Notes: a model not told the origin generated them from the letters alone. Positions 1 to 11,624 are shown, counted from the stretch's first letter. The stretch: DNA of 64,000 bases from an uncultured Alphaproteobacteria bacterium (GCA_944393225.1 CALXZK010000003.1:7853-71852); one strand, 5' to 3'. Numbers and translations are program-made.

Positions 1-1669
1 TTGGATAAAATATATAATGAGGTTCTACAATTACTTCACATAAAGCAGGACCATCAGAGGCTAAAACATCTTGTATCTTTTTATCAAGATTTTCTGCATC
101 TTTAATACAATAAGACTGAATACCAAATCCTTTTGCTATATTAATAAAATTAGGACAAATAACACCTGATGACTTGTCTGCCGCTGTAAGGCGTCCTTCA
201 AAGAAATTGGTTTGTGTTTGTTTCATAGAGATATAACCATCATTGTTAATAACAAAAATTTTAATAGGTAAATTATAATTTTTGATAGTTTGTAATTCCT
301 GCAAATTCATCATGATAGATCCGTCACCTGCCAAACAAACAACACGTTTTTTATTTCGAGCAAAACAAGCACCTATAGAAGCTGGTAAATCATACCCCAT
401 TGTTGCATTTCCTGAATTCCAAAACATTCGCATATTCTTTTTTATGCGGGCTATTTGAAAAGGAATGACACAAGCAGAGCCATTTCCCGTTACCACAGCA
501 TCTTCTTGTAAATTTTTAAACAAACAATCAATAAAATAATAAGGATTTATATTTTCTCCTATCTGCTGATACTCTGTTACGTTTTCAACAGCATATTTCT
601 GTTTAATATTTCGACAATACGTTAACCAATCATTATGAGGTTGAATATCAATCTTTTCCAACTCATACAATAAGGCCGGTAAAAAATCTTTTAAATCTGC
701 ATTAACAGCAATATCTGGAATAACCGTAGGTTTTTGCAGTTCAGCATTATCTATATCTACAACAATCTTTATTGCTTTATCAGCATAGCTTTCCCAATTA
801 TAACTAACTTGACGAATATTATTTCTTGTCCCTAAAAATAAAACGCAGTCTGAATTTTGCAAAATAAAATTACCTGCTCTTTGACCTATGGTTCCTATTC
901 TTCCCATATAGAATGGATAATTTTCATCTACAGTATCAACACCATTGAATGTTGTCAAAACAGGAGCGTTTATCTTTTCCGCTAATTTTTTCATTTGAGA
1001 AATGCTATCAGATAAACGTACACCATAACCAGATACAATTGATATGCGTTTTGCTGTTTTGATATGATTAACAATTGTGCTTAAATTAAGTTCTTTATGT
1101 ATCTCTGAAGGTGGAATAAACTCCTTTAAATTATTTTCATCAATCATACTGCTTTGAATATCTAATGGAATATCAAGCCATACTGGACCAAAACGTCCAT
1201 GTGTTGCTTCCCAAATAGCCTTATCTAAATGATATTTAATTTCTTCTGGCTTAACAACACATACCGCATATTTTGTAATTGGTTTTACTATAGAAATAAT
1301 ATCAACTTCTTGATCTCCTATCTGACGAATTTTTAGGTTTGGATAGGTCGCCATTAAAGTTGCTCTTTTAATTTGCCCAGAGATATAAAGTACTGGAACA
1401 GAATCTGTCCATTGTCCAAATACACCCGTAACAGCATTTAATGCCCCTGGTCCAGAAGTTGTGTTAACCACAGCCAATTTATTGTTATATCTGGCTTGTC
1501 CTTCTGCACAAAAAGCACACGCTTGTTCGTGATGATTGCAAATGTATGGAATATATTTGCCAAAGCTATCATTCAAATGCATTGCTCCACCACCGGGAAT
1601 TAAATAAACACGTTCTATTTCATAAACTTCTTTCAAACGTTTGGCGATATAATCACTGACTTTTATCAT
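1..1669 (-). CDS. Thiamine-diphosphate-dependent enzyme, acetolactate-synthase-large-subunit / YerE-like. The C-terminal end runs off the window, and the gene is absent from the supplied ORF track.
   Basis: My own translation of the minus strand from the ATG at 1669 reads MIKVSDYIAKRLKEVYEIERVYLIPGGGAMHLNDSFGKYIPYICNHHEQACAFCAEGQARYNNKLAVVNTTSGPGA... In the same frame at 300-420 it reads GNATMGYDLPASIGACFARNKKRVVCLAGDGSIMMNL, the ThDP-binding GDG...N region. At 2-60 it reads SDGPALCEVIVEPHYIFYP. The frame is consistent at all spots checked. Confidence 0.8.
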   Translation of the reverse strand, partial: MIKVSDYIAKRLKEVYEIERVYLIPGGGAMHLNDSFGKYIPYICNHHEQACAFCAEGQARYNNKLAVVNTTSGPGALNAVTGVFGQWTDSVPVLYISGQIKRATLMATYPNLKIRQIGDQEVDIISIVKPITKYAVCVVKPEEIKYHLDKAIWEATHGRFGPVWLDIPLDIQSSMIDENNLKEFIPPSEIHKELNLSTIVNHIKTAKRISIVSGYGVRLSDSISQMKKLAEKINAPVLTTFNGVDTVDENYPFYMGRIGTIGQRAGNFILQNSDCVLFLGTRNNIRQVSYNWESYADKAIKIVVDIDNAELQKPTVIPDIAVNADLKDFLPALLYELEKIDIQPHNDWLTYCRNIKQKYAVENVTEYQQIGENINPYYFIDCLFKNLQEDAVVTGNGSACVIPFQIARIKKNMRMFWNSGNATMGYDLPASIGACFARNKKRVVCLAGDGSIMMNLQELQTIKNYNLPIKIFVINNDGYISMKQTQTNFFEGRLTAADKSSGVICPNFINIAKGFGIQSYCIKDAENLDKKIQDVLASDGPALCEVIVEPHYIFYP

Positions 1670-1674
1670 TTTTA

Positions 1675-2733
1675 TTATCCTAACTGAGCTAAAACTTTTT
1701 TAACTTCATTTTCTTGCAAATCTAAAATTTTAGATGTCTCAAAATTGTCATCAAGCATAATCAATGCCATATTATTTCCTACGTTTTTCTTGTCTTGATG
1801 CATAGCTTGCACAATTTTGTTTTCATCTAAAACCGGCTTAGAAACTTTCAAAATTGGATATAAAATTTTATCTTCCAAAAATTTCAACTTATCTTTAGAT
1901 AATATTTTTCTATCCATACTAACTTTGTTTGCTAAAATCATACCCAAAACAACAGCTTGCCCATGCGGAATGGCAAAATTGGTAGCACTTTCAATTGCAT
2001 GACCAAAGCAATGTCCATAATTGAGCATATTTCTTTTTCCTGTATCAAATTCATCTGTTTCAATATAAGATTTTTTAATATTCAGACAATTATGGGTCAT
2101 TTTAGAAAGTGTGGCATTATCCAAAGCATCAATTTTCGGCAAAGCATCAATAAACTCCTGAGCTTTTTCTTTTCCAGCCATAATGTGCAATTTTGCCATT
2201 TCTCCGACGCCGGAATAAAAATCTTGAACATTTAAGCTCTTTAAAAATTCAGGATAAATATAAACTTCTTTCGGAGCATAAAAAGTACCAACCAAATTTT
2301 TAAAATGTTTAAAATTCAAAGATGTCTTTGCTCCGATACAACTATCAACTTGAGCCAATAATGTTGTCGGTACAAATATCCAATTTACTCCACGATATAA
2401 ACTTGAAGCTACAAAACCGGTTATATCTTGAATAATTCCGCCCCCAAAAGAGATAATCGTCATATTTTTACGAGGAGCAAATTGCATAATTTTCTCATAT
2501 ATTGCACAAACCGTATCAATATTTTTGATATCTTCACAAACCGGTTGAACAATTACTTTTTCCTGCGGAATTGAAGAAAGATGTGTGTTTTTATAAATAT
2601 TCCAAATATTTTCATCAATGACAAAAACACTATTTGGCATTTGCGCCAAATTTTTTATAAAATCAGCATTATCTTCAAAATTAACAGTATAATCTTTTAA
2701 ATTTGATTTTATAGTGATTTGATCTACACGCAT
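1675..2733 (-). CDS. 3-dehydroquinate synthase family protein (sugar-phosphate cyclase superfamily)
   Basis: GGGIIQDITGFVASSLYRGVNWIFVPTTLLAQVDSCIGAKTSLN matches the DHQS nucleotide/metal core (GGGxxxDxxGF...PTTLLAxVDSxxGGKTxxN). Downstream are NYGHCFGHAIE and HGQAVVLGM. The gene sits in a glycan operon, not an aromatic amino-acid context. Confidence 0.75.
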   Translation of the reverse strand: MRVDQITIKSNLKDYTVNFEDNADFIKNLAQMPNSVFVIDENIWNIYKNTHLSSIPQEKVIVQPVCEDIKNIDTVCAIYEKIMQFAPRKNMTIISFGGGIIQDITGFVASSLYRGVNWIFVPTTLLAQVDSCIGAKTSLNFKHFKNLVGTFYAPKEVYIYPEFLKSLNVQDFYSGVGEMAKLHIMAGKEKAQEFIDALPKIDALDNATLSKMTHNCLNIKKSYIETDEFDTGKRNMLNYGHCFGHAIESATNFAIPHGQAVVLGMILANKVSMDRKILSKDKLKFLEDKILYPILKVSKPVLDENKIVQAMHQDKKNVGNNMALIMLDDNFETSKILDLQENEVKKVLAQLG

Positions 2734-3383
2734 GAAAAACCTCCGTCAACAAATATGGTCTGCCCTGTTGTAAAAGAATTTTGCGGACTGGCCAAGAAAT
2801 AAACAAACTCGGCAATTTCTGTTACATTGCCCATTCTTTTAATAGGCAAATTATCTTCCAGAATTTTAATCTGTTCAGGTGTATTATTTTGATAAGTCAT
2901 TTCAGTAGCAATAAAACCCGGAGCAATGGCATTAACCAAAATATTAAACTTAGAAAGTTCTACTGCTGAAGCCGTGGTCAAACCTTTTATTCCGGCCTTA
3001 GCTATTGAATACATAATTCTACGTTCTTTTGAAAAATCGCACCAAATAGAAGCAAAATTAACAATACGCCCCCAATTTTTAGCTTTCATCATCGGTGCAA
3101 CATATTTAATTAACAAGGTCGAAGAAATCAAATTAACCTGTAACATCTCTTGTAAAGATATCTCATCCATTTCTTCTATAGATGCTAAATTATTAATCCC
3201 CGCGCAATTAACTAAAATATCTACATCAGTTAAATGTTTCATATAATTCTTTATGCTTTCTGTCGATGATAAATCCATTTCTTGTCGTGTCGGAGCGAAA
3301 ACCTCAATTTCTCGCTCACGAAAAAGTCGACAAATTTCTTTACCAATTCCTCTGGAACCACCTGTAATCAATGCCTTATACAT
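2724..3383 (-). CDS. Short-chain dehydrogenase/reductase (SDR)
   Basis: N-terminal TGGSRGIGKEI Rossmann motif, NCAGI, and the catalytic YSIAKAG (YxxxK). It overlaps the downstream gene by 10 nt. Confidence 0.8.
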   Translation of the reverse strand: MYKALITGGSRGIGKEICRLFREREIEVFAPTRQEMDLSSTESIKNYMKHLTDVDILVNCAGINNLASIEEMDEISLQEMLQVNLISSTLLIKYVAPMMKAKNWGRIVNFASIWCDFSKERRIMYSIAKAGIKGLTTASAVELSKFNILVNAIAPGFIATEMTYQNNTPEQIKILEDNLPIKRMGNVTEIAEFVYFLASPQNSFTTGQTIFVDGGFSCV

Positions 3384-4183
3384 TATTGAGCCTTTTGCTT
3401 ATTATATCTTTCTTCAATCATAGCTATACGTTTTGTTTCAGCATTTGCAAAACGAGAATAAAATTCTTTTTTGCATTGCATCCAGTTAAGCTCAAAGCCC
3501 ATCGCTTTGGTTAAAGCTTGTTCAACTTTTGCATCTGTTAAAGAATATTGTGCATCAAAAATAATGTTTCTGGTTTCAAAGCACTCTAAAACTTCTTTTG
3601 GAAGTTGACGGAAAAACTTTAGTGATTCACCGGAAACACCGCCGCCGACAAACAATTTTTTGCCATATTTTTGAGCTAATGATGCCATTTTTTCAGCATA
3701 AGACATCATTTCTTCAGAATTAACAAAACTACGGTCTTTGCCCATGGAACCTGAAAAATCCACTCTTCCCAAGACAATACCGTAAATGTCTTGAGCTTCT
3801 TTGATTTGCAACATTTCTTCAAGATTTTTAAAACCAGTAATGGTTTCAATATTAACCATAAATTTTGTATCGGCATATTCTTCATCAGAATAAATAACAT
3901 GGCTGGCTTCAATAAATTTTTTCAAAGCATAGGGAGTTTCTATCATCGGAGCTACAATTTTGTTCACACCCAAAACTTTGGCATCATGCATATCTCTTCT
4001 GGCCTCACATCCGCCAATTTTCATAGATACGGCAACACCGGCCTTAAAAGCAATGGAGGCAATGATTTGCGCCAATTCTCCGGTCAAACCTTCATCTTCA
4101 AAAGAAATTTTAATTCCTTTAACATGATGATTTTCTTTCAAATCTTTAAGCAATTCATACATATTCTTTTCATATTTATTCAT
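3383..4183 (-). CDS. HpcH/HpaI-type (class II, pyruvate-dependent) aldolase / citrate-lyase-beta-like TIM-barrel protein
   Basis: KIVAPMIETPYALKKFIEA and MVNIETITGFKNLEEML...GIVLGRVDFSGSMG resemble the conserved P-x-V-E and I-E-S/T...G-x-x-D-L segments of the HpcH_HpaI family. This is recognition by eye only. Confidence 0.55.
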   Translation of the reverse strand: MNKYEKNMYELLKDLKENHHVKGIKISFEDEGLTGELAQIIASIAFKAGVAVSMKIGGCEARRDMHDAKVLGVNKIVAPMIETPYALKKFIEASHVIYSDEEYADTKFMVNIETITGFKNLEEMLQIKEAQDIYGIVLGRVDFSGSMGKDRSFVNSEEMMSYAEKMASLAQKYGKKLFVGGGVSGESLKFFRQLPKEVLECFETRNIIFDAQYSLTDAKVEQALTKAMGFELNWMQCKKEFYSRFANAETKRIAMIEERYNKQKAQ

Positions 4184-4184
4184 T

Positions 4185-5069
4185 TTATTTATCCTCTAAT
4201 AGTTGTTTGTATTCTATGCTATCTTTATGCTTTTCATAATAATCATACAAATTTTTTACTGACTGGTAGATGGGTGTTAAACGAAGATTAGGAAACTCAC
4301 TTCTCAATCTGCTATTATCTCCATAATAATCTAAGCCATACCCATCTTTAGAAATTTGAATCTCAACGTCTTTGTGGCTGATTTCTTTTACCATTTCAGC
4401 TAATTGCTTAAGCTCAACAAAATTATCTGGACATACATTATAATGCTTATACTTAACTTCATTCTCAGTAAAAAATTCCAAAATTGGAGGTAAATCATTA
4501 ACATCTAAATAACTAAAACGGCGATTTTGTCTGCAAGTTATAGGTAAATCAAACAAAACCTTACAAATAGCATTTGAAATAAAACGAATGCTATAATCTT
4601 CGTATTTACCAAATATTCCAAAAATATTTAAATCTATGAAATTAGGAAGAGAATCTATTCTTTTTCCGACAACATATTTACAAAAACTATGGTCATCTTT
4701 GCCCATATTTTTATAAATATCATGTTCAGAAACACCTGAGTTATTTTGCGCTACATCATATATTGCACCACTTCCAGCATTAATAAATTTTCCATAAGAT
4801 GCACAGTTGCGAGCTAAGTTTTCAAAATTTCGGACATTGGTGTAAAATAAATTATTTAAATCAAGCGCATTTCTGTGCCCAGGTTTTATTGCAAAATGCC
4901 AAACAGCATCAAAATATTTGTCTTTAAAATAAGAATCAACCTCCTTAGTATCTGACCAATTAACTTCACTATGATGAGGTGTCTCAATGTCGTACTTTTG
5001 GGACAAATAACTCTCTAAAATATTTTTACCAATAAAACCATTAGCCCCTGTTAACAAAATCTTTTTCAT
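4185..5069 (-). CDS. NAD-dependent sugar epimerase/dehydratase/reductase (extended SDR)
   Basis: MKKILLTGANGFIGKNI Rossmann start. The ATG at 5069 is preceded by GGAG and overlaps the rfbG stop (TAATG). The track ORF starts 4 codons earlier, at 5081. Confidence 0.75.
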   Translation of the reverse strand: MKKILLTGANGFIGKNILESYLSQKYDIETPHHSEVNWSDTKEVDSYFKDKYFDAVWHFAIKPGHRNALDLNNLFYTNVRNFENLARNCASYGKFINAGSGAIYDVAQNNSGVSEHDIYKNMGKDDHSFCKYVVGKRIDSLPNFIDLNIFGIFGKYEDYSIRFISNAICKVLFDLPITCRQNRRFSYLDVNDLPPILEFFTENEVKYKHYNVCPDNFVELKQLAEMVKEISHKDVEIQISKDGYGLDYYGDNSRLRSEFPNLRLTPIYQSVKNLYDYYEKHKDSIEYKQLLEDK

Positions 5070-6160
5070 TACAAACTCCATTCTAAATTTTGTTTTTTGG
5101 CTTCAGATAAAAATTCGTCAATTTGCATTTGACTAAATGCATACATATCTGATTTTGTCGTGTAATGCTGCTTATACCATTCGGTCGTTACTTTAATGGC
5201 GGCATCTACATCATAAACAGGACGCACACCCAATACTTTATCTGCTTTTTCAATGTTTAATTGCAATAATGTTGCTTCATGTAAGCCATCAGATGAACCG
5301 ACTTCAACTTTGCCTTTTCCCCAAACATCAACCACTTTTTGTGCAACTTCACAAACCTTAACAACAGAAGATGCATAAGGACCAAAATTAAATCCATCGG
5401 CATATTTAGAACCTTGTTCAAACAACATTTGCCCTAAACGCAAATAGCCAACCAATGGTTCTAAGACAAATTGCCACGGTCTGGTAGCCAATGGATTGCG
5501 AATAAAAATGGTTTCACCTTGACGAATAGCGTTAATACAATCTGGAATTAAACGATCTTTTGCCCAATCTCCGCCACCGATAACATTTCCGGCGCGTCCG
5601 GTTCCCAGTGCAAAAGGTTTTCCGTCAGTTAAAAATGAGCGGCGATAAGAAGAGCTCAAAATCTCTGAACATCCTTTGGAAGAAGAATACATATCATATC
5701 CGCCCATCGGTTCATCTTCTTTATAACCTTCTTTTTTTTCTTTGTTTTCATAACATTTATCTGTGGTCACATTAACAAAAGCTTTAACTGAAGGTGTTTG
5801 ACGTGCCGCTTCTAAAACATTAAGTGTTCCGATTACATTTGTCTCATAAGTTAAAACAGGCTCGGCATAGGATAAGCGAACCAAAGGCTGTGCAGCCAAA
5901 TGAAAAACAAAATCAGGTTGGCATTTTTGCATAAATTGAGCCAATTTTTCTCTTTCTCTGATATCAGCAATCATTTCATCTTCAAGCAAGTCATGAATAT
6001 GCACAATATCATATAAAGATTCACTGCTGTCCGGCTTTAGAGAATAACCATAAACTTTTGCCCCTAATTTTTTTAAGAGCATTACTAACCAACAACCTTT
6101 AAAACCGCAATGTCCTGTAACAAAAACCTTTTTATCTCTATAAATATTATTAAAAGACAC
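5069..6160 (-). CDS. rfbG: CDP-glucose 4,6-dehydratase
   Basis: KVFVTGHCGFKGCWL (the family signature is VTGHTGFKGxWL). Length is about 360 aa. GTG start. It lies immediately downstream of the cytidylyltransferase. Confidence 0.85.
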   Translation of the reverse strand: MSFNNIYRDKKVFVTGHCGFKGCWLVMLLKKLGAKVYGYSLKPDSSESLYDIVHIHDLLEDEMIADIREREKLAQFMQKCQPDFVFHLAAQPLVRLSYAEPVLTYETNVIGTLNVLEAARQTPSVKAFVNVTTDKCYENKEKKEGYKEDEPMGGYDMYSSSKGCSEILSSSYRRSFLTDGKPFALGTGRAGNVIGGGDWAKDRLIPDCINAIRQGETIFIRNPLATRPWQFVLEPLVGYLRLGQMLFEQGSKYADGFNFGPYASSVVKVCEVAQKVVDVWGKGKVEVGSSDGLHEATLLQLNIEKADKVLGVRPVYDVDAAIKVTTEWYKQHYTTKSDMYAFSQMQIDEFLSEAKKQNLEWSL

Positions 6161-6163
6161 GGG

Positions 6164-6943
6164 TTAATCCTCCCACACTTTCCAAGGAGCATGACCTTCG
6201 GCCCAAATTTTATTTAACTCTTCTTTGTCTTTCAGCATATCCATCGGACGCCAAAAACCACGATGTTTAAAGGCATTGAGCTGTCCATCATTAGCCAAAC
6301 TTTTTAAAGGTTTCTGTTCCCAAATAACATCATCTCCATCGGGGATATAATCAAAAATTTGAGGTTCGCAAACAAAGAACCCTCCGTTTATCCAAGCATC
6401 TTCATTTTTGGGCTTTTCTTGGAAATTTGAAACCCTCATATCTTCTTCAACTTTTAACACGCCAAAACGACCTTCAGGTTGAATGGCTGTCAATGTGCAA
6501 TATTTTCCGCTTAGCTTATGAAACTTAATTAACTCATTAATATTAACATCTGAAACACCATCTCCATAAGTTAACATAAATGGTTCATTGCCAATAAAAT
6601 CTTTTATTTTTTTAATTCGACCACCAGTCATTGTATTACGTCCGGTATAAAAGAGTGTAACTTTCCATGGCTCAGCCTCGGTTTGATGCACCTCAACATT
6701 ATTTGTAGCCAAATCAACCGTAACATTTGAATTATTCATATAGTAGTTCACAAAATAGTCTTTAATAACTTCTTGTTTATAGCCGGTCAGAACAACAAAT
6801 TCATTAAAACCATAATGAGAATAAATTTTCATTATATGCCACAAAATCGGATATCCACCAATTCCAACCATCGGCTTGGGTCTAACACCTGTTTCTTCTC
6901 CTAAGCGAGTTCCGAGCCCTCCGGCTAAAATTACAACTTTCAT
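6164..6943 (-). CDS. rfbF: Glucose-1-phosphate cytidylyltransferase
   Basis: MKVVILAGGLGTRLGEETGVRPKPMVGIGGYPILWHIMKIYSHYGFNEFVVLTGYK is near-canonical for RfbF/DdhA. A GGAGAG Shine-Dalgarno lies upstream. Confidence 0.9.
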   Translation of the reverse strand: MKVVILAGGLGTRLGEETGVRPKPMVGIGGYPILWHIMKIYSHYGFNEFVVLTGYKQEVIKDYFVNYYMNNSNVTVDLATNNVEVHQTEAEPWKVTLFYTGRNTMTGGRIKKIKDFIGNEPFMLTYGDGVSDVNINELIKFHKLSGKYCTLTAIQPEGRFGVLKVEEDMRVSNFQEKPKNEDAWINGGFFVCEPQIFDYIPDGDDVIWEQKPLKSLANDGQLNAFKHRGFWRPMDMLKDKEELNKIWAEGHAPWKVWED

Positions 6944-7673
6944 TTTCTCTCCATCCTATTAATTGTATAATTTTTTGTATAAAAGTCTTTTGTGGCAACA
7001 ATGATTTTCTTATTTTGTCTGTTGCCATTTTCATTTTTTGGTTATTTTTTTTAGACTCATTTGTTTCATGATCTCGGTATCTGAATAAAATTTCAGGAAC
7101 ATTATGAAAACTTGTCTTTCCTACCAAACGACACCACAATGCATAATCCTCAGACGGTGAAAATTCGTCTTCATATTTTAGATGATTTTCAATAAGTACT
7201 GATTTTCTTATCATGGCGGCAGGATGCAACAACGGACATGAATCTTTCAGAGCTTTGATAATTTGTTTGTTATTTTCAGGTTTTTTCTTGATTGTAAGAT
7301 TAGGAAAACGTTCATACCAACAACTCACTACCCCACATTCCGGATGAGCATCAAGATAAGCTACTTCTTTTTCAAAACGGTGTGGCAAAGAAATATCATC
7401 ATGATCCATCACGGCAATATATTCACCAGATGTCAAATCAAGGAGCTTATTTCTTGTTCCAGAAATTCCTAAATTTTTTTCATTTCTAAAATATTTAATA
7501 CGATTATCGGCATAAGATTGGATGATTCTCTCACAATCTTTATCTTCAGGACAATCATCAACAATTAAAAATTCAAAATCTGTATATGTTTGATTAAGAA
7601 TAGATTCTATACATTCTTTCAAGTATTCTGACTTAGTTTTATAAACGGCAAGACAAACAGAAACTTTTGGCAT
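6882..7673 (-). CDS. Family 2 glycosyltransferase
   Basis: VSVCLAVYKTKSEYLKECIESILNQTYTDFEFLIVDDCPED (GT2 DxD region). The C-terminal tail reads 62 nt into rfbF. Confidence 0.85.
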   Translation of the reverse strand: MPKVSVCLAVYKTKSEYLKECIESILNQTYTDFEFLIVDDCPEDKDCERIIQSYADNRIKYFRNEKNLGISGTRNKLLDLTSGEYIAVMDHDDISLPHRFEKEVAYLDAHPECGVVSCWYERFPNLTIKKKPENNKQIIKALKDSCPLLHPAAMIRKSVLIENHLKYEDEFSPSEDYALWCRLVGKTSFHNVPEILFRYRDHETNESKKNNQKMKMATDKIRKSLLPQKTFIQKIIQLIGWRENESCNFSRRARNSLRRRNRC

Positions 7674-8261
7674 CTATTTATCTCCTCGGCTAAAAGAAAT
7701 TCCGTGTCTTCTGGCAAAAGCGTAGATTGATGCACGGTTAATACCTAATTGTCTGGCTATTTCTGACTTTGAAATACCATCATCAAGCATTTGCAAAATT
7801 TTTTCTGAGTTGTTTTCTAATTTTGATTTGACTTTTGCACCGAACGGGCGACCAAGTTTTTTGCCTTCTCTTTTGCGTTGACTTAAAACTTTTCTTGTGG
7901 ATTGTGAAATTAAATGACTGCGAATATCAATAGCAACATCCATCCCTTTGAAAAAATCTTCCGTCAAGTTGAACTTGTCAAAACTATAACCATCTTCAAT
8001 CGAAATTAGTTTCAGATTCCTTTCTTGACAAAATTGAAGATTTTCTTTGATATCTTGTAAATAAGGCCCAATATTGCTGATTTTATTAATAAGGATACCT
8101 TCACAATCGGCTTGAATAATGCTTTTAACATTTTCAAAATTATTGCCTGTATGAACACACCCCATCACAAAGCCATGTTCTTTTGCAAAAGAGTTAAGGC
8201 TTTGATATTGATCAGCGTAATCTGCCTGATCTTGATTATTTGGTATGTATCCAACAAACAT
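7674..8261 (-). CDS. Serine-recombinase (resolvase/invertase) homolog with substituted catalytic residues. It is predicted to be non-catalytic and DNA-binding.
   Basis: MFVGYIPNNQDQ aligns with the MxxGYIRVSTxxQ seen in the neighbouring ORF, so the Arg and the Ser nucleophile are replaced by P and N. KISNIGP stands in place of the D-R-L-G-R motif. The E-helix (SQSTRKVLSQRKREGKKLGRP) and the C-terminal HTH (SKSEIARQLGINRASIY) are retained. The ORF is intact and its stop abuts the GT2 start. I prefer the ATG at 8261; the track gives a TTG at 8270. Confidence 0.7.
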   Translation of the reverse strand: MFVGYIPNNQDQADYADQYQSLNSFAKEHGFVMGCVHTGNNFENVKSIIQADCEGILINKISNIGPYLQDIKENLQFCQERNLKLISIEDGYSFDKFNLTEDFFKGMDVAIDIRSHLISQSTRKVLSQRKREGKKLGRPFGAKVKSKLENNSEKILQMLDDGISKSEIARQLGINRASIYAFARRHGISFSRGDK

Positions 8262-8372
8262 TCGGCGCAATCTTCAAAAATCAGCAATTTTGCATATAAT
8301 TTTGAAGACATAACTGCTTATATCGATGAAAAATCTTGATTTTCTTAAAGTTAACATAAAAAATTTTTTATC

Positions 8373-8524: not shown

Positions 8525-9112
8525 ATGATTTATGGATATATCAGGGTCAGCACAGACCATCAAAATGTTGCAAATCAACATCACGAAATTGAAATTTTTT
8601 CTCAAAAACAGAATCTGACAATCGATAAATGGGTTGAGGAAGTTATTTCTTCCAGAAAGCCTTTGCAAGAAAGGAAACTAGGAAAACTCCTAAAAAAGCT
8701 CAAAAAAGGAGATATTTTAATTGCAACCGAGCTCTCCAGACTCGGAAGGAATCTGCTTGAAGTTATGAGTATTTTACAAAAATGTCTGGAAAAAGATTGT
8801 CAAATTTGGACTTTGAAAGAAAATTATCGATTAGGAGCTGATATACAATCAAAAGTTTTAGCTTTTGCCTTTTCTTTAGCCAGTGAAATTGAAAGACAAC
8901 TAATTTCAGAACGCACAAAAATGTCTTTACAACGATTAAAAAACGAAGGCAAACATTTGGGAAGACCATTAGGAGCATCTTCTCAAAAACTACAAAAACA
9001 TCATGATAAAATCAAAAAACTTTGGGATAAAAATATTCCAAAATCACAAATAGCTAAAATGTTTGGTTGTACATGGCTTACAATTCATAGATATATAAAA
9101 AATAATTTTTAA
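8525..9112 (+). CDS. Serine recombinase, small DNA-invertase/resolvase type (Hin/Gin/Tn3-resolvase-like)
   Basis: MIYGYIRVSTDHQ (catalytic Ser), ATELSRLGRN, the E-helix ...ISERTKMSLQRLKNEGKHLGRP, and the C-terminal HTH KSQIAKMFGCTWLTIHRYI. An AAGGA Shine-Dalgarno lies upstream. Confidence 0.85.
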   Translation: MIYGYIRVSTDHQNVANQHHEIEIFSQKQNLTIDKWVEEVISSRKPLQERKLGKLLKKLKKGDILIATELSRLGRNLLEVMSILQKCLEKDCQIWTLKENYRLGADIQSKVLAFAFSLASEIERQLISERTKMSLQRLKNEGKHLGRPLGASSQKLQKHHDKIKKLWDKNIPKSQIAKMFGCTWLTIHRYIKNNF

Positions 9113-9122
9113 TTAACTCATG

Positions 9123-9157
9123 AAGACTTTTTCTAATTTTGGAAGAAGTCTTTTTTT
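9123..9157 (+). terminator. Rho-independent terminator after the invertase gene
   Basis: AAGACTTTTTCT / GGAAGAAGTCTT forms a 12-bp stem (two G-U pairs) with a 6-nt loop, followed by TTTTT. Confidence 0.65.
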
Positions 9158-9392
9158 GTAAATTGTTTTTCTTATAAAAATTTTAAGAAATAATTATATC
9201 AATTGACTTTATGCAATTATTTTTTTGAATTTGATGCTGAAACTCACTTTTGTTCGTTTCATCATAAACTTCACAATCTGAAGATTGCTCGTTTTTTTTC
9301 TTTGTTTTTGTTGTTTTTTTGGGGTAAAAAATTAAATAAAAAATTTTAAATAATCAATTTTAGATAATTTTTTATAATTAATTTATTTAATG

Positions 9393-9464
9393 TATCCAAG
9401 TTAGATTTGCTCTTTTTACCCTAAAACAAGGGTAAAAAAATATAGCATCCAAGTTGAGTTTGCT
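9393..9464 (+). repeat. Direct repeat - perfect hairpin - direct repeat module
   Basis: tATCCAAGTTagaTTTGCT (9393-9411) and cATCCAAGTTgagTTTGCT (9446-9464) match at 15/19 positions. They flank TTTTTACCCT-aaaaca-AGGGTAAAAA (9413-9438), a perfect 10-bp stem. GGGTAAAAAA also occurs at about 9321-9330. Confidence 0.6.
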
Positions 9465-9921
9465 TTCTATTTAGGGTATATCATTTCTGAAATCCGCATA
9501 CCGCCAATGCGAACCTTCACCCAGCTTTTCCGGTAGGTATACTATGTATCCGAATAGAACCAAATACATAATACTGAGGTTGTTAATGAGCACAAACAGA
9601 GCCTCGATTTCTAACTGACATCATCAGCCGTGTCCTATTTGTTTGTCGCCGACCGTCTTTGGAGGAGTTACTTTGCGACACTTACACCAATGGGTAAGAA
9701 TTTCATAGGTTTTCAGTTGGTTCCCTGCTTGAGGGTGCTTCATTTAAGCCTGTTTCCCCGTTTTAATAATATGATAAGGCTATCATAATTGGTATGTCTA
9801 TTAATATTTATTAAGATACCATAGTCATTATTCATTTTGCAAAAATAAAAACGTAAAAAGTTTTGTTTTTTTCAAAAAAAATTTAGCAAAACTAGGATAA
9901 AAAGGGCCGTATTGTATCAAC

Positions 9922-10578
9922 TCATTGTTTTGGTTTTGAATTTGAGATACAATTTTCAACAATTCTTCTAGCTAGTTTTGTAGCATTCCAGCCTGAACTA
10001 TTAAATCCAAATGTAGACCTTATCCCCTTTGGTGAGTCTAACATTGTGATTATTGCATATTTTTTGTTGTTATATATGAAGTGCCCCATAAAGGTTGTTA
10101 TTACCTCTTTAGAATTATCTGTTTTATAGTCAGTGGCTGTCAAACCATAGACTTTAATACCTTTTATGTTAGTTTGACGAGCCGTGCCTTTTGTCACATT
10201 TTCTCTTAGTTTTTTTAATTTATTTTTATCAGCGTGTTTTATAAAATGACCATAGTCTTGAATAAATTGTGCCGTTGTCTCAGGTTGTTGCTTGTTAAAC
10301 AATTTCATTAAGTTATTGGCTTTATAAGCATAATCACGGTTATAATCAAAGTCACCTAAACTACTTATAGATGTAGAGTTTAACACTTCATTATTTTGAA
10401 GATTTATCAAGACGAAAGCCCCTCCTTTTGCCTTAAATCTGTCTATTTCTTGTACTAATATATTATAATTACTTTCGCAAACAGATATGGCTGTGTTACA
10501 ATGGTTTGCAACAGATAATGTATTTGATATGCATCCCGTCAGAAGTAATAAAATTACCAAAAAAGTTGATTTTTTCAT
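9922..10578 (-). CDS. Lipoprotein resembling an internally deleted, catalytically dead penicillin-binding-protein transpeptidase domain
   Basis: Signal peptide plus lipobox: MKKSTFLVILLLLTGC. KAKGGAFVLINLQNNEVLNSTS resembles the start of PBP2/3 transpeptidase domains (compare E. coli FtsI AKSGSAVVLVDVNTGEVLAMAN). IKGIKVYGLTATDYK...YAIITMLDSPKG...WNATKLARRIVE resembles the KTG-strand-to-C-terminus region, but KTG reads LTA. There is no SxxK or SxN segment. Confidence 0.45.
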   Translation of the reverse strand: MKKSTFLVILLLLTGCISNTLSVANHCNTAISVCESNYNILVQEIDRFKAKGGAFVLINLQNNEVLNSTSISSLGDFDYNRDYAYKANNLMKLFNKQQPETTAQFIQDYGHFIKHADKNKLKKLRENVTKGTARQTNIKGIKVYGLTATDYKTDNSKEVITTFMGHFIYNNKKYAIITMLDSPKGIRSTFGFNSSGWNATKLARRIVENCISNSKPKQ

Positions 10579-10580
10579 AT

Positions 10581-11624
10581 TTAATCCTTTCTTATGAAGT
10601 TTTTTTGTAATGTGAGATAGGCAGCCTTACACCAATTTTTATAAAAATAAGTGGGATTTTTACGAGTTCTGTTACCCTTCAATTCTTTTTGAATATCATA
10701 AAACAGCTCAGTGCGAACCATTAGCAAGTTTCCAGCACCCATTCCAATTTTTCTCCATTCTTCATGGTATGTCTTAGAAATCCTAGTTTTTTTAGGGTAT
10801 ATATACATAATCGGAGGAAAGATGTTTTTTACAGCTTCAAACATTTTACTATCTGAAAGCTCTACAAAATATAATTTAATTTCCCTATTATCTAAGACAA
10901 ATAAACGGGCAGTTCCGGCATACCCCATTCCCCCCATAGAGGTTATGCCAACAATCATTATATTATTAGGATTAATTTGCTTTATTGATAATAAGTTGAG
11001 TTTTTTGAACGTATATCCAAGTTCATCTATTTGCTCAGGATATGAAAATATATGTAGCTTTTCTGCTTTTTTATTTGCAAAAAATGCCAATTCATACCCC
11101 ATAACACATAATTTTAACAGAATATTTGGTAGTTTTTTTCTAAAGTTAATATTTAGGTGAAAGCCCAACCATTCTCTTTCATCTAAATCAGTTTGTTTAA
11201 AAATAATTTTTAAGGAGTATATCTTACAGAGATTGAACTCAGTTATCCAATCAAATTCCGGGGTTGATAAAACTTCATCTTGTGGGTCATCATTTATTAT
11301 TTCAACGGCTCCGCTGTCTATATGAAATTGAATATAGTCATCAACAACACAGTAATTTTCATTTACGGAAATTACTTTATGAAATCCTACTCCTAGTTTT
11401 ATTCCTAAAAAGCATAAGCTCAAACGATTGTGCTGTAAATCAAGTTGAAAAAACTCTCTTATGGAGGGGAACCATTCAAAAAAACATTGAATGTAATAGT
11501 TTTTTGCAAGAAAAACTATTATTTCAACATTTAAGCACTTTTTATCTCTACAAAAATAAAGATTAATTACCTTTTTGATAAGGTGGAGCCTAATGGATTC
11601 ATTATCTTTGTTTATCATTCTCAT
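10581..11624 (-). CDS. Hypothetical cytoplasmic protein (347 aa), no domain recognised
   Basis: This is a long ORF in an AT-rich region. It lies 2 nt upstream of the lipoprotein gene, suggesting an operon. There is no signal peptide or TM segment and no motif I can name. Confidence 0.6.
   Translation of the reverse strand: MRMINKDNESIRLHLIKKVINLYFCRDKKCLNVEIIVFLAKNYYIQCFFEWFPSIREFFQLDLQHNRLSLCFLGIKLGVGFHKVISVNENYCVVDDYIQFHIDSGAVEIINDDPQDEVLSTPEFDWITEFNLCKIYSLKIIFKQTDLDEREWLGFHLNINFRKKLPNILLKLCVMGYELAFFANKKAEKLHIFSYPEQIDELGYTFKKLNLLSIKQINPNNIMIVGITSMGGMGYAGTARLFVLDNREIKLYFVELSDSKMFEAVKNIFPPIMYIYPKKTRISKTYHEEWRKIGMGAGNLLMVRTELFYDIQKELKGNRTRKNPTYFYKNWCKAAYLTLQKNFIRKD

Follow-up and report, generated by a model that had tools for sequence, protein, structure and literature searches.

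A CDP-6-deoxyhexose operon with YerE-like and dehydroquinate synthase-like genes in an uncultured alphaproteobacterium probably makes a long-branched sugar

We analyzed a 64-kb stretch of DNA, here called the window, from an uncultured Alphaproteobacteria bacterium (GCA_944393225.1, CALXZK010000003.1:7853-71852; G000:C3:7853-71852 in our numbering), and also fetched the 7.8 kb that precede its start. All coordinates refer to the window. At its beginning lies a minus-strand glycan operon in which the genes for a CDP-activated 6-deoxyhexose are joined to genes for a YerE-like thiamin diphosphate (ThDP) enzyme, a putative HpcH-like aldolase, two short-chain dehydrogenases/reductases (SDRs) and a protein of the 3-dehydroquinate synthase (DHQS) family. 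The operon probably serves to make and attach a CDP-activated 6-deoxyhexose with a long polyhydroxyalkyl branch at C4, as in caryophyllose and the sugar of Rhodopseudomonas palustris. Genes were identified by listing open reading frames (ORFs) and by family scans with Pfam and NCBIfam. Those of the operon that lie in the window are the following:

6882-7673, minus strand: family 2 glycosyltransferase (GT2), 263 amino acids, first gene of the operon (PF00535, E 3e-31); its 3' end overlaps the start of rfbF by 62 nt
6164-6943, minus strand: RfbF, glucose-1-phosphate cytidylyltransferase, 259 amino acids (TIGR02623, 398 bits against a cut-off of 300, full-length alignment)
5069-6160, minus strand: RfbG, CDP-glucose 4,6-dehydratase, 363 amino acids (TIGR02622, 460 bits against a cut-off of 278)
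4185-5081, minus strand: extended SDR, 298 amino acids (PF01370, E 4e-16)
3383-4183, minus strand: TIM-barrel lyase of the HpcH/HpaI superfamily, 266 amino acids (PF03328, E 1e-10)
2724-3383, minus strand: classical FabG-like SDR, 219 amino acids (PF13561, E 1e-44)
1675-2733, minus strand: DHQS-family protein, 352 amino acids (both DHQS Pfam domains; TIGR04425)
2-1669 (codons 1-556), minus strand: acetolactate synthase-like/YerE-like ThDP enzyme, truncated at the window edge (all three ThDP domains)

An earlier reading of this DNA from its sequence alone, referred to here as the original prediction, had named rfbF, rfbG and the HpcH-like, SDR, DHQS-like and ThDP genes. All of them were recovered here as intact reading frames on the minus strand, the ThDP gene being cut by the window edge. 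The prediction had counted four further genes after rfbG; there are in fact five, as the extended SDR gene between rfbG and the aldolase gene had been overlooked.

CDP activation and 4,6-dehydration of glucose are accounted for by the scores of RfbF (TIGR02623) and RfbG (TIGR02622). The CDP-6-deoxyhexose pathway previously read from these two genes is thereby upheld, and it is coupled here to a branching ThDP enzyme of the YerE type and a putative reductase. RfbH/DdhC, the E1 enzyme of 3-deoxygenation, through which the published scheme reaches a CDP-3,6-dideoxy-4-keto acceptor, is absent from the operon, and no RfbH at cut-off was found in the 97.3%-complete genome. It had been suggested that DdhC/DdhD-type genes might lie just outside the window, where the flanking 7.8 kb instead hold GT2 genes, an aminotransferase-like gene and an ABC exporter. 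Because RfbH is absent, the product should keep the oxygen at C3.

The full ThDP gene encodes 591 amino acids and extends to 106 nt before the window start. The best relative with a solved structure is JanthE from Janthinobacterium sp. HH01 (PDB 8rph, 8rpi and 8rpj), likewise a YerE-like ThDP enzyme, with a full-length match to 8rph over residues 2-590 at E 1.3e-116, well ahead of PpYerE (5ahk, E 6e-69) and of acetohydroxyacid synthases. The two enzymes differ in the ThDP motif, which is CDG in JanthE and the canonical GDG in the window enzyme. By sequence comparison the protein falls clearly within the YerE-like group and is best described as a YerE-like carboligase, and the YerE-type branching precedent invoked for this operon gains support from both matches. 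The physiological substrates of JanthE are unknown (PMC12188165); in its reactions it uses long alpha-keto acids and also pyruvate as donors, and ketones, cyclic ones included, as acceptors. YerE is the founding precedent and JanthE takes pyruvate among its donors, and both facts would suit a plain yersiniose-type two-carbon branch, for which the ThDP enzyme would use pyruvate and the aldolase, the DHQS-like protein and the SDR would not feed it. Such a pathway, however, leaves three strictly co-conserved genes without a role, and the published clusters for long branches pair the ThDP enzyme with an aldolase. We therefore regard a two-carbon branch as highly improbable.

A unifying scheme has been published for acyl-branched sugars (Steitz et al., 2022, PMC9306805; reviewed in 2025, PMC12247030). 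In this scheme a hydroxylated alpha-keto acid is formed by an aldolase and added decarboxylatively to C4 of a CDP-4-keto sugar by a YerE-like enzyme, and a YerF-like reductase finally reduces the new side-chain carbonyl. It covers erwiniose (ErwE/F/I/J), caryophyllose (MMAR_2331/2332), gastriose (MyGE/MygI/MygF) and the sugar of R. palustris CGA009, and MMAR_2331, the aldolase of the caryophyllose pathway, is a member of the aldolase/citrate-lyase family (PMC9306805). Like these clusters, the window operon leads from a CDP-hexose to a 4-keto-6-deoxy sugar and combines genes for a putative aldolase, a YerE-like enzyme and a putative reductase with glycosyltransferase genes; unlike them, it lacks RfbH/E1, and its putative aldolase is a very divergent member of the HpcH superfamily. 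The statement of the original prediction that the aldolase is not part of any known CDP-sugar pathway was thus mistaken: the aldolase is not foreign to such pathways, because the published scheme pairs an aldolase, a YerE-like enzyme and a reductase (PMC9306805). The literature that we found on acyl-branched sugars attributes no function to either a DHQS-family enzyme or a FabG-like SDR, and we found none linking YerE or caryophyllose with dehydroquinate synthase.

The closest natural counterpart of the predicted product is found in the O-antigen of R. palustris CGA009, also an alphaproteobacterium. Its sugar is a C4-branched 6-deoxy sugar with a six-carbon chain and oxygen at C3, as the RfbH-less cassette predicts, and has been described as the 3-O-methylated derivative of a caryophyllose form that retains the C3 hydroxyl (Chem Rev survey, PMC9912281). 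This sugar therefore provides a natural precedent for a product that keeps O-3. A SAM methyltransferase is encoded in the R. palustris cluster, whereas the window operon has none.

The HpcH-like protein had no sequence match among solved structures. Its AlphaFold model, built on 31 homologues, reached a pLDDT of 94.8, and its best fold matches, at a Z of about 18 and with an rmsd of 2.5-2.7 over about 195 residues, were GarL, HpcH/HpaI and SwHKA, a hydroxy-ketone aldolase, with concordant Foldseek results. Identity to solved members of the superfamily is 11-17%, so the protein is very divergent. In 35 of 38 loci the gene is a neighbor of those for the SDR and the DHQS-like protein. On the strength of the modelled fold, we propose that the protein would act as a pyruvate aldolase making an alpha-keto-acid precursor. 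A phosphonate pathway with PEP mutase, phosphonopyruvate decarboxylase and iron alcohol dehydrogenase was considered and rejected: the ThDP enzyme is of the full-length, 591-amino-acid YerE/acetolactate synthase type, and the barrel matches HpcH aldolases and not isocitrate lyase/PEP mutase.

The DHQS-like protein scores above the cut-off of TIGR04425 (411 bits against 400) and below that of the aroB model TIGR01357 (269 against 305). In NCBIfam, TIGR04425 is named 'AroB-related putative sugar phosphate phospholyase (cyclizing)', a hypothetical equivalog without a tested function. Among solved structures, similarity was highest to DHQSs (E 6e-44 to 1e-34), followed by DOIS, the synthase of 2-deoxy-scyllo-inosose (2e-29), ValA, an EEVS (synthase of 2-epi-5-epi-valiolone; 1e-24) and desmethyl-4-deoxygadusol synthase (DDGS, 5e-20). 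Judged by these scores, the protein appears nearer to DHQS than to EEVS, DDGS or DOIS. The classification among these four groups that had been proposed as a check thus gives DHQS as the nearest by score, yet in a TIGR04425 clade apart from AroB.

The pocket was compared by alignment to five solved DHQSs and 32 family members. All DHQS pocket positions identifiable by motif are invariant, namely R114, D130, K136, N146, E178, K181, K220, R234, L237, N238, H241, H245, H257 and K315/K316, and the NAD+-binding glycines are kept as well. Fold, NAD+ and metal ligands and the residues of the pocket for 3-deoxy-D-arabino-heptulosonate 7-phosphate (DAHP) match AroB. Two changes are family-specific and invariant, Cys132 (DSC for DSS) and Cys242 (GHC for GHT). 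Since the DHQS pocket is kept, we argue that the substrate would be a DAHP-like 3-deoxy-2-ulosonate phosphate, and since the genome has no DAHP synthase, only the neighboring aldolase could supply it. We propose that the protein is an NAD+/metal-dependent phosphate eliminase acting on a 3-deoxy-heptulosonate 7-phosphate. KDO-8-P was also considered as substrate and rejected on chemical grounds, as its phosphate is not beta to an oxidizable ring carbinol.

A housekeeping 3-dehydroquinate synthase would have the same DHQS-type pocket, and no other DHQS-family gene is present in the genome, as would be expected if this one were aroB. Against this stand not only the two family scores but also the context. 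No aroC or aroQ and no aroA at cut-off were found in the genome, nor were aroFGH or a type II DAHP synthase, the sole PF00793 member being KdsA. A DHQS-family match occurred in none of 12 genomes of the same genus and none of 12 of the same family, whereas ordinary AroB is encoded in genomes of the class that are more distantly related. In a maximum-likelihood tree, 33 cassette proteins were split from five AroBs of the same class with 100/100 support, and the copy of the window stood among gut Melainabacteria and other unrelated phyla. A role as housekeeping AroB thus has next to no probability, and the original prediction was right to set the protein apart: it does not group with true AroB and lacks a shikimate context. 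We conclude that the gene is accessory and was acquired horizontally. Genomes of the family measure 1.3-1.9 Mb. Because aroC, aroQ, aroA above cut-off and DAHP synthase are all absent, the organism probably depends on external aromatic amino acids.

For the two SDRs, motifs and gene neighborhood suggest putative roles. The FabG-like SDR has TGxxxGIG, Ser112 and Tyr125-x3-Lys129 intact, and in 35 of 38 loci its gene borders the DHQS-like one and overlaps with it; we propose that it would reduce the ketone left by phosphate elimination. In the extended SDR the GxxGxxG and YxxxK motifs are intact, matches to solved structures are weak and family matches are to generic epimerases/reductases. We propose it as a putative YerF/ErwF-like reductase of the side-chain ketone at C1'.

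Combined, these assignments would give the following route. RfbF and RfbG, identified by their family scores, would convert glucose-1-phosphate and CTP into CDP-4-keto-6-deoxy-D-glucose with O-3 kept. The HpcH-like enzyme would condense pyruvate (or its enolate) with a phosphorylated aldose, in the simplest case erythrose-4-phosphate, to a 3-deoxy-heptulosonate 7-phosphate. On this compound the DHQS-like enzyme would perform transient NAD+ oxidation, beta-elimination of phosphate and re-reduction, and without ring closure this would leave a 6-keto, 7-methyl end. Reduction of the 6-ketone by the FabG-like SDR would yield a 3,7-dideoxy-heptulosonate, which the YerE-like enzyme, as its family suggests, would decarboxylate in order to transfer a six-carbon acyl group onto C4 of the CDP-keto sugar. 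The extended SDR would then reduce the C1' ketone to a 1,3,4,5-tetrahydroxyhexyl branch, and the downstream GT2 enzymes and the ABC exporter would build and export the glycan. The chain of caryophyllose is 1,3,4,5-tetrahydroxyhexyl (PMC5706390). The open-chain route would yield exactly this chain, with one job for each of the five cassette enzymes. The pathway type is known, and only the DHQS-like enzyme and its partner SDR come without a described job; the lack of RfbH and an aldolase without R34 are local variations.

Whether the DHQS-like enzyme closes a ring is the point at which another reading branches off. It could produce a carbocycle-branched sugar, either by closing the ring after the ThDP step on the phosphorylated keto side chain, with a cyclohexane (quinate-like) ring at C4, or by making a dehydroquinate-like ketone as acceptor for the ThDP enzyme. 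The fully conserved DHQS catalytic pocket and the word '(cyclizing)' in the NCBI family name are in line with this. So are the cyclic ketones accepted by JanthE and the existence of carbocyclic sugars such as bradyrhizose in bacterial lipopolysaccharide, and an aldol step after branching is conceivable, as HpcH-family enzymes such as SwHKA take hydroxy-ketone nucleophiles. The bradyrhizose genes were of no use as a precedent, as they are unknown (PMC4743980). Closure before the ThDP step, however, would remove the alpha-keto acid that the ThDP enzyme needs, which makes this the less economical reading. The conserved residues that bind the DAHP carboxylate in DHQS disfavor a bulky CDP-sugar in that place, and a CDP-keto sugar as acceptor, as in YerE pathways, is suggested by how tightly the cassette is linked to RfbF, RfbG and RfbH. 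Moreover, a ring-on-ring structure occurs in no known natural sugar. We consider a carbocyclic branch unlikely, and somewhat more doubtful again its specific form in which a ring closed on a phosphorylated keto side chain would give a CDP-6-deoxyhexose with a quinate-like cyclitol at C4; to our knowledge, a sugar class of this kind has never been described. Elimination without cyclization is favored because ring closure before the ThDP step destroys the alpha-keto-acid donor.

Several points nevertheless weigh against the open-chain route. The pocket of the DHQS-like protein is nearly identical to that of true DHQS, in which the enol intermediate cyclizes readily, and the claim that no ring is closed rests on pathway logic, with nothing in the sequence to show it. 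The pocket positions that we take to bind metal, phosphate and carboxylate were assigned from the DHQS structural literature. Neither an enzyme activity nor a product has been described for a member of TIGR04425, of the aldolase subfamily found here or for the paired SDR, and erythrose-4-phosphate as the aldehyde partner is a guess. Finally, the aldolase of the window and that of a related locus in a Desulfovibrionaceae metagenome-assembled genome (MAG), L013, are without R34 and R40, which are near-invariant in the family.

These two aldolases form a subtype, with K-x-S-F-E-D-E-G where the family consensus reads KAEFEAEGTRLEEALRLKE. Within residues 26-42, the window protein is also without the near-invariant E37 and K42. 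Such a subtype could use a different aldehyde substrate.

The distribution of the cassette was assessed with a scan of species-representative genomes, which yielded 37 related loci from more than 10 phyla that were compared by tblastn and ORF clustering. Lineages with related loci include Gastranaerophilales, Elusimicrobiota, Spirochaetota, Chloroflexota, Actinomycetota, Planctomycetota, Bacteroidota and Campylobacter, and among the nearest relatives of the cassette are gut- and rumen-derived MAGs. Neither Mycobacterium nor any other organism with a solved glycan was among the homologue matches listed, which did include TIGR04425 homologues of Effusibacillus consociatus and Paenibacillus isolates. 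Twenty-one loci, 20 related ones and that of the window, offer 4 kb or more of sequence to either side of the DHQS-like gene and form the full-context set. The HpcH-like, SDR, DHQS-like and ThDP genes occur together in 20 of them, and the extended SDR is likewise found in 20 of 21. RfbF is present in 14 of 21, as is RfbH/DdhC (NF011936, 668 bits); L025 is one other full-context locus that has RfbG and lacks RfbH.

This conservation bears on the idea that the operon serves two unrelated products. RfbF, RfbG and the extended SDR as a 4-reductase would then make a plain CDP-6-deoxyhexose, and the aldolase, the DHQS-like protein and the FabG-like SDR a quinate/shikimate-like acid or another small molecule, with the ThDP enzyme belonging to either. 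The three latter enzymes would be chemically sufficient for a quinate-like compound, the extended SDR has only generic epimerase/reductase matches, and one locus (L018) has the SDR-DHQS-like pair alone among housekeeping genes. Independent pathways, however, can hardly explain why the four-gene cassette includes the ThDP enzyme in 20 of the 21 full-context loci and usually stands with rfbF, rfbG and rfbH across unrelated phyla, and the ThDP enzyme is clearly YerE-like. Two separate products are in our judgment improbable, and a single long-branched CDP-6-deoxyhexose is the preferred product of the operon.

Two side observations concern the make-up of related loci. In L018, from an uncultured Rickettsiales MAG, the SDR-DHQS-like pair (8877-10597 of that locus) lies between ruvB, queC, hisB and ftsH, and the 8 kb around it contain neither rfb genes nor an aldolase or ThDP enzyme gene. 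These housekeeping neighbors are uninformative on function; the pair may be left over from a fuller cassette or may serve a separate function. In three related loci (e.g. L023, 11151-11798) a HAD-family phosphatase gene is inserted between the DHQS-like and ThDP genes, which fits a phosphorylated pathway intermediate.

Long-branched sugars form the outermost, antigenic tip of bacterial surface glycans, and the chemical structures of very few of them are solved. With the cassette present in more than 10 phyla, many gut lineages among them, such sugars may be much commoner than the handful known. If a DHQS-family member indeed removes phosphate without closing a ring, this would be a new reaction outcome for the sugar-phosphate-cyclase superfamily and would explain the methyl-ended polyol chain of caryophyllose-type sugars.

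The operon extends beyond the window. Past the window start, that is at its downstream end after the ThDP gene, follow four GT2 genes, those of 692, 355 and 312 amino acids among them, a weakly GT2-like gene of 291 amino acids and a fused ABC exporter gene that runs off the contig end. The predicted continuation of the operon past position 1 was thus correct. Neighboring genes overlap by up to 62 nt or are separated by at most 33 nt, and we detected no internal terminator in the operon that was convincing. Because of these tight junctions and the lack of a convincing terminator, we take the approximately 14 minus-strand genes to be a single transcription unit that extends 7.8 kb past the window start. 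The cassette genes, for which a transcription unit of their own unrelated to the glycan had been considered, thus belong to one tightly packed operon. Amid the downstream glycosyltransferase genes, approximately 3.3-4.4 kb before the window start, lies a class I aspartate-aminotransferase-like gene (L001, 3417-4595, minus strand). It scored 447 bits on the archaeal-type aspartate aminotransferase model, under the cut-off of 550. Across the related loci the gene is not conserved; it might be a housekeeping gene that ended up in the island, or its product might provide alpha-keto acids in another way, by transamination.

The G+C content is 32-34% at positions 1-8000 and 35-44% across most of the window past about 18 kb. 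The operon (1-8000) also has an unusually strong GC skew, -0.18 to -0.20 against about -0.05 in the next 10 kb, a signature separate from low G+C. Together with the absence of the DHQS-like gene from 24 relatives and its position in the tree, these values support the AT-richness and horizontal acquisition noted in the original prediction, and the whole island is a horizontally acquired, strain-specific one. A degenerate resolvase-like ORF (7674-8270, minus strand) is situated directly upstream of the operon's first gene, with weak Resolvase and helix-turn-helix matches and 77 bits on the Mpi model. Back to back with it stands an intact serine invertase of the Mpi family (8525-9112, plus strand; 270 bits against a cut-off of 272). 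The invertase beside the operon suggests phase-variable expression of the glycan genes, and its position next to a strain-specific island hints at switchable surface variation in a bacterium with a small genome.

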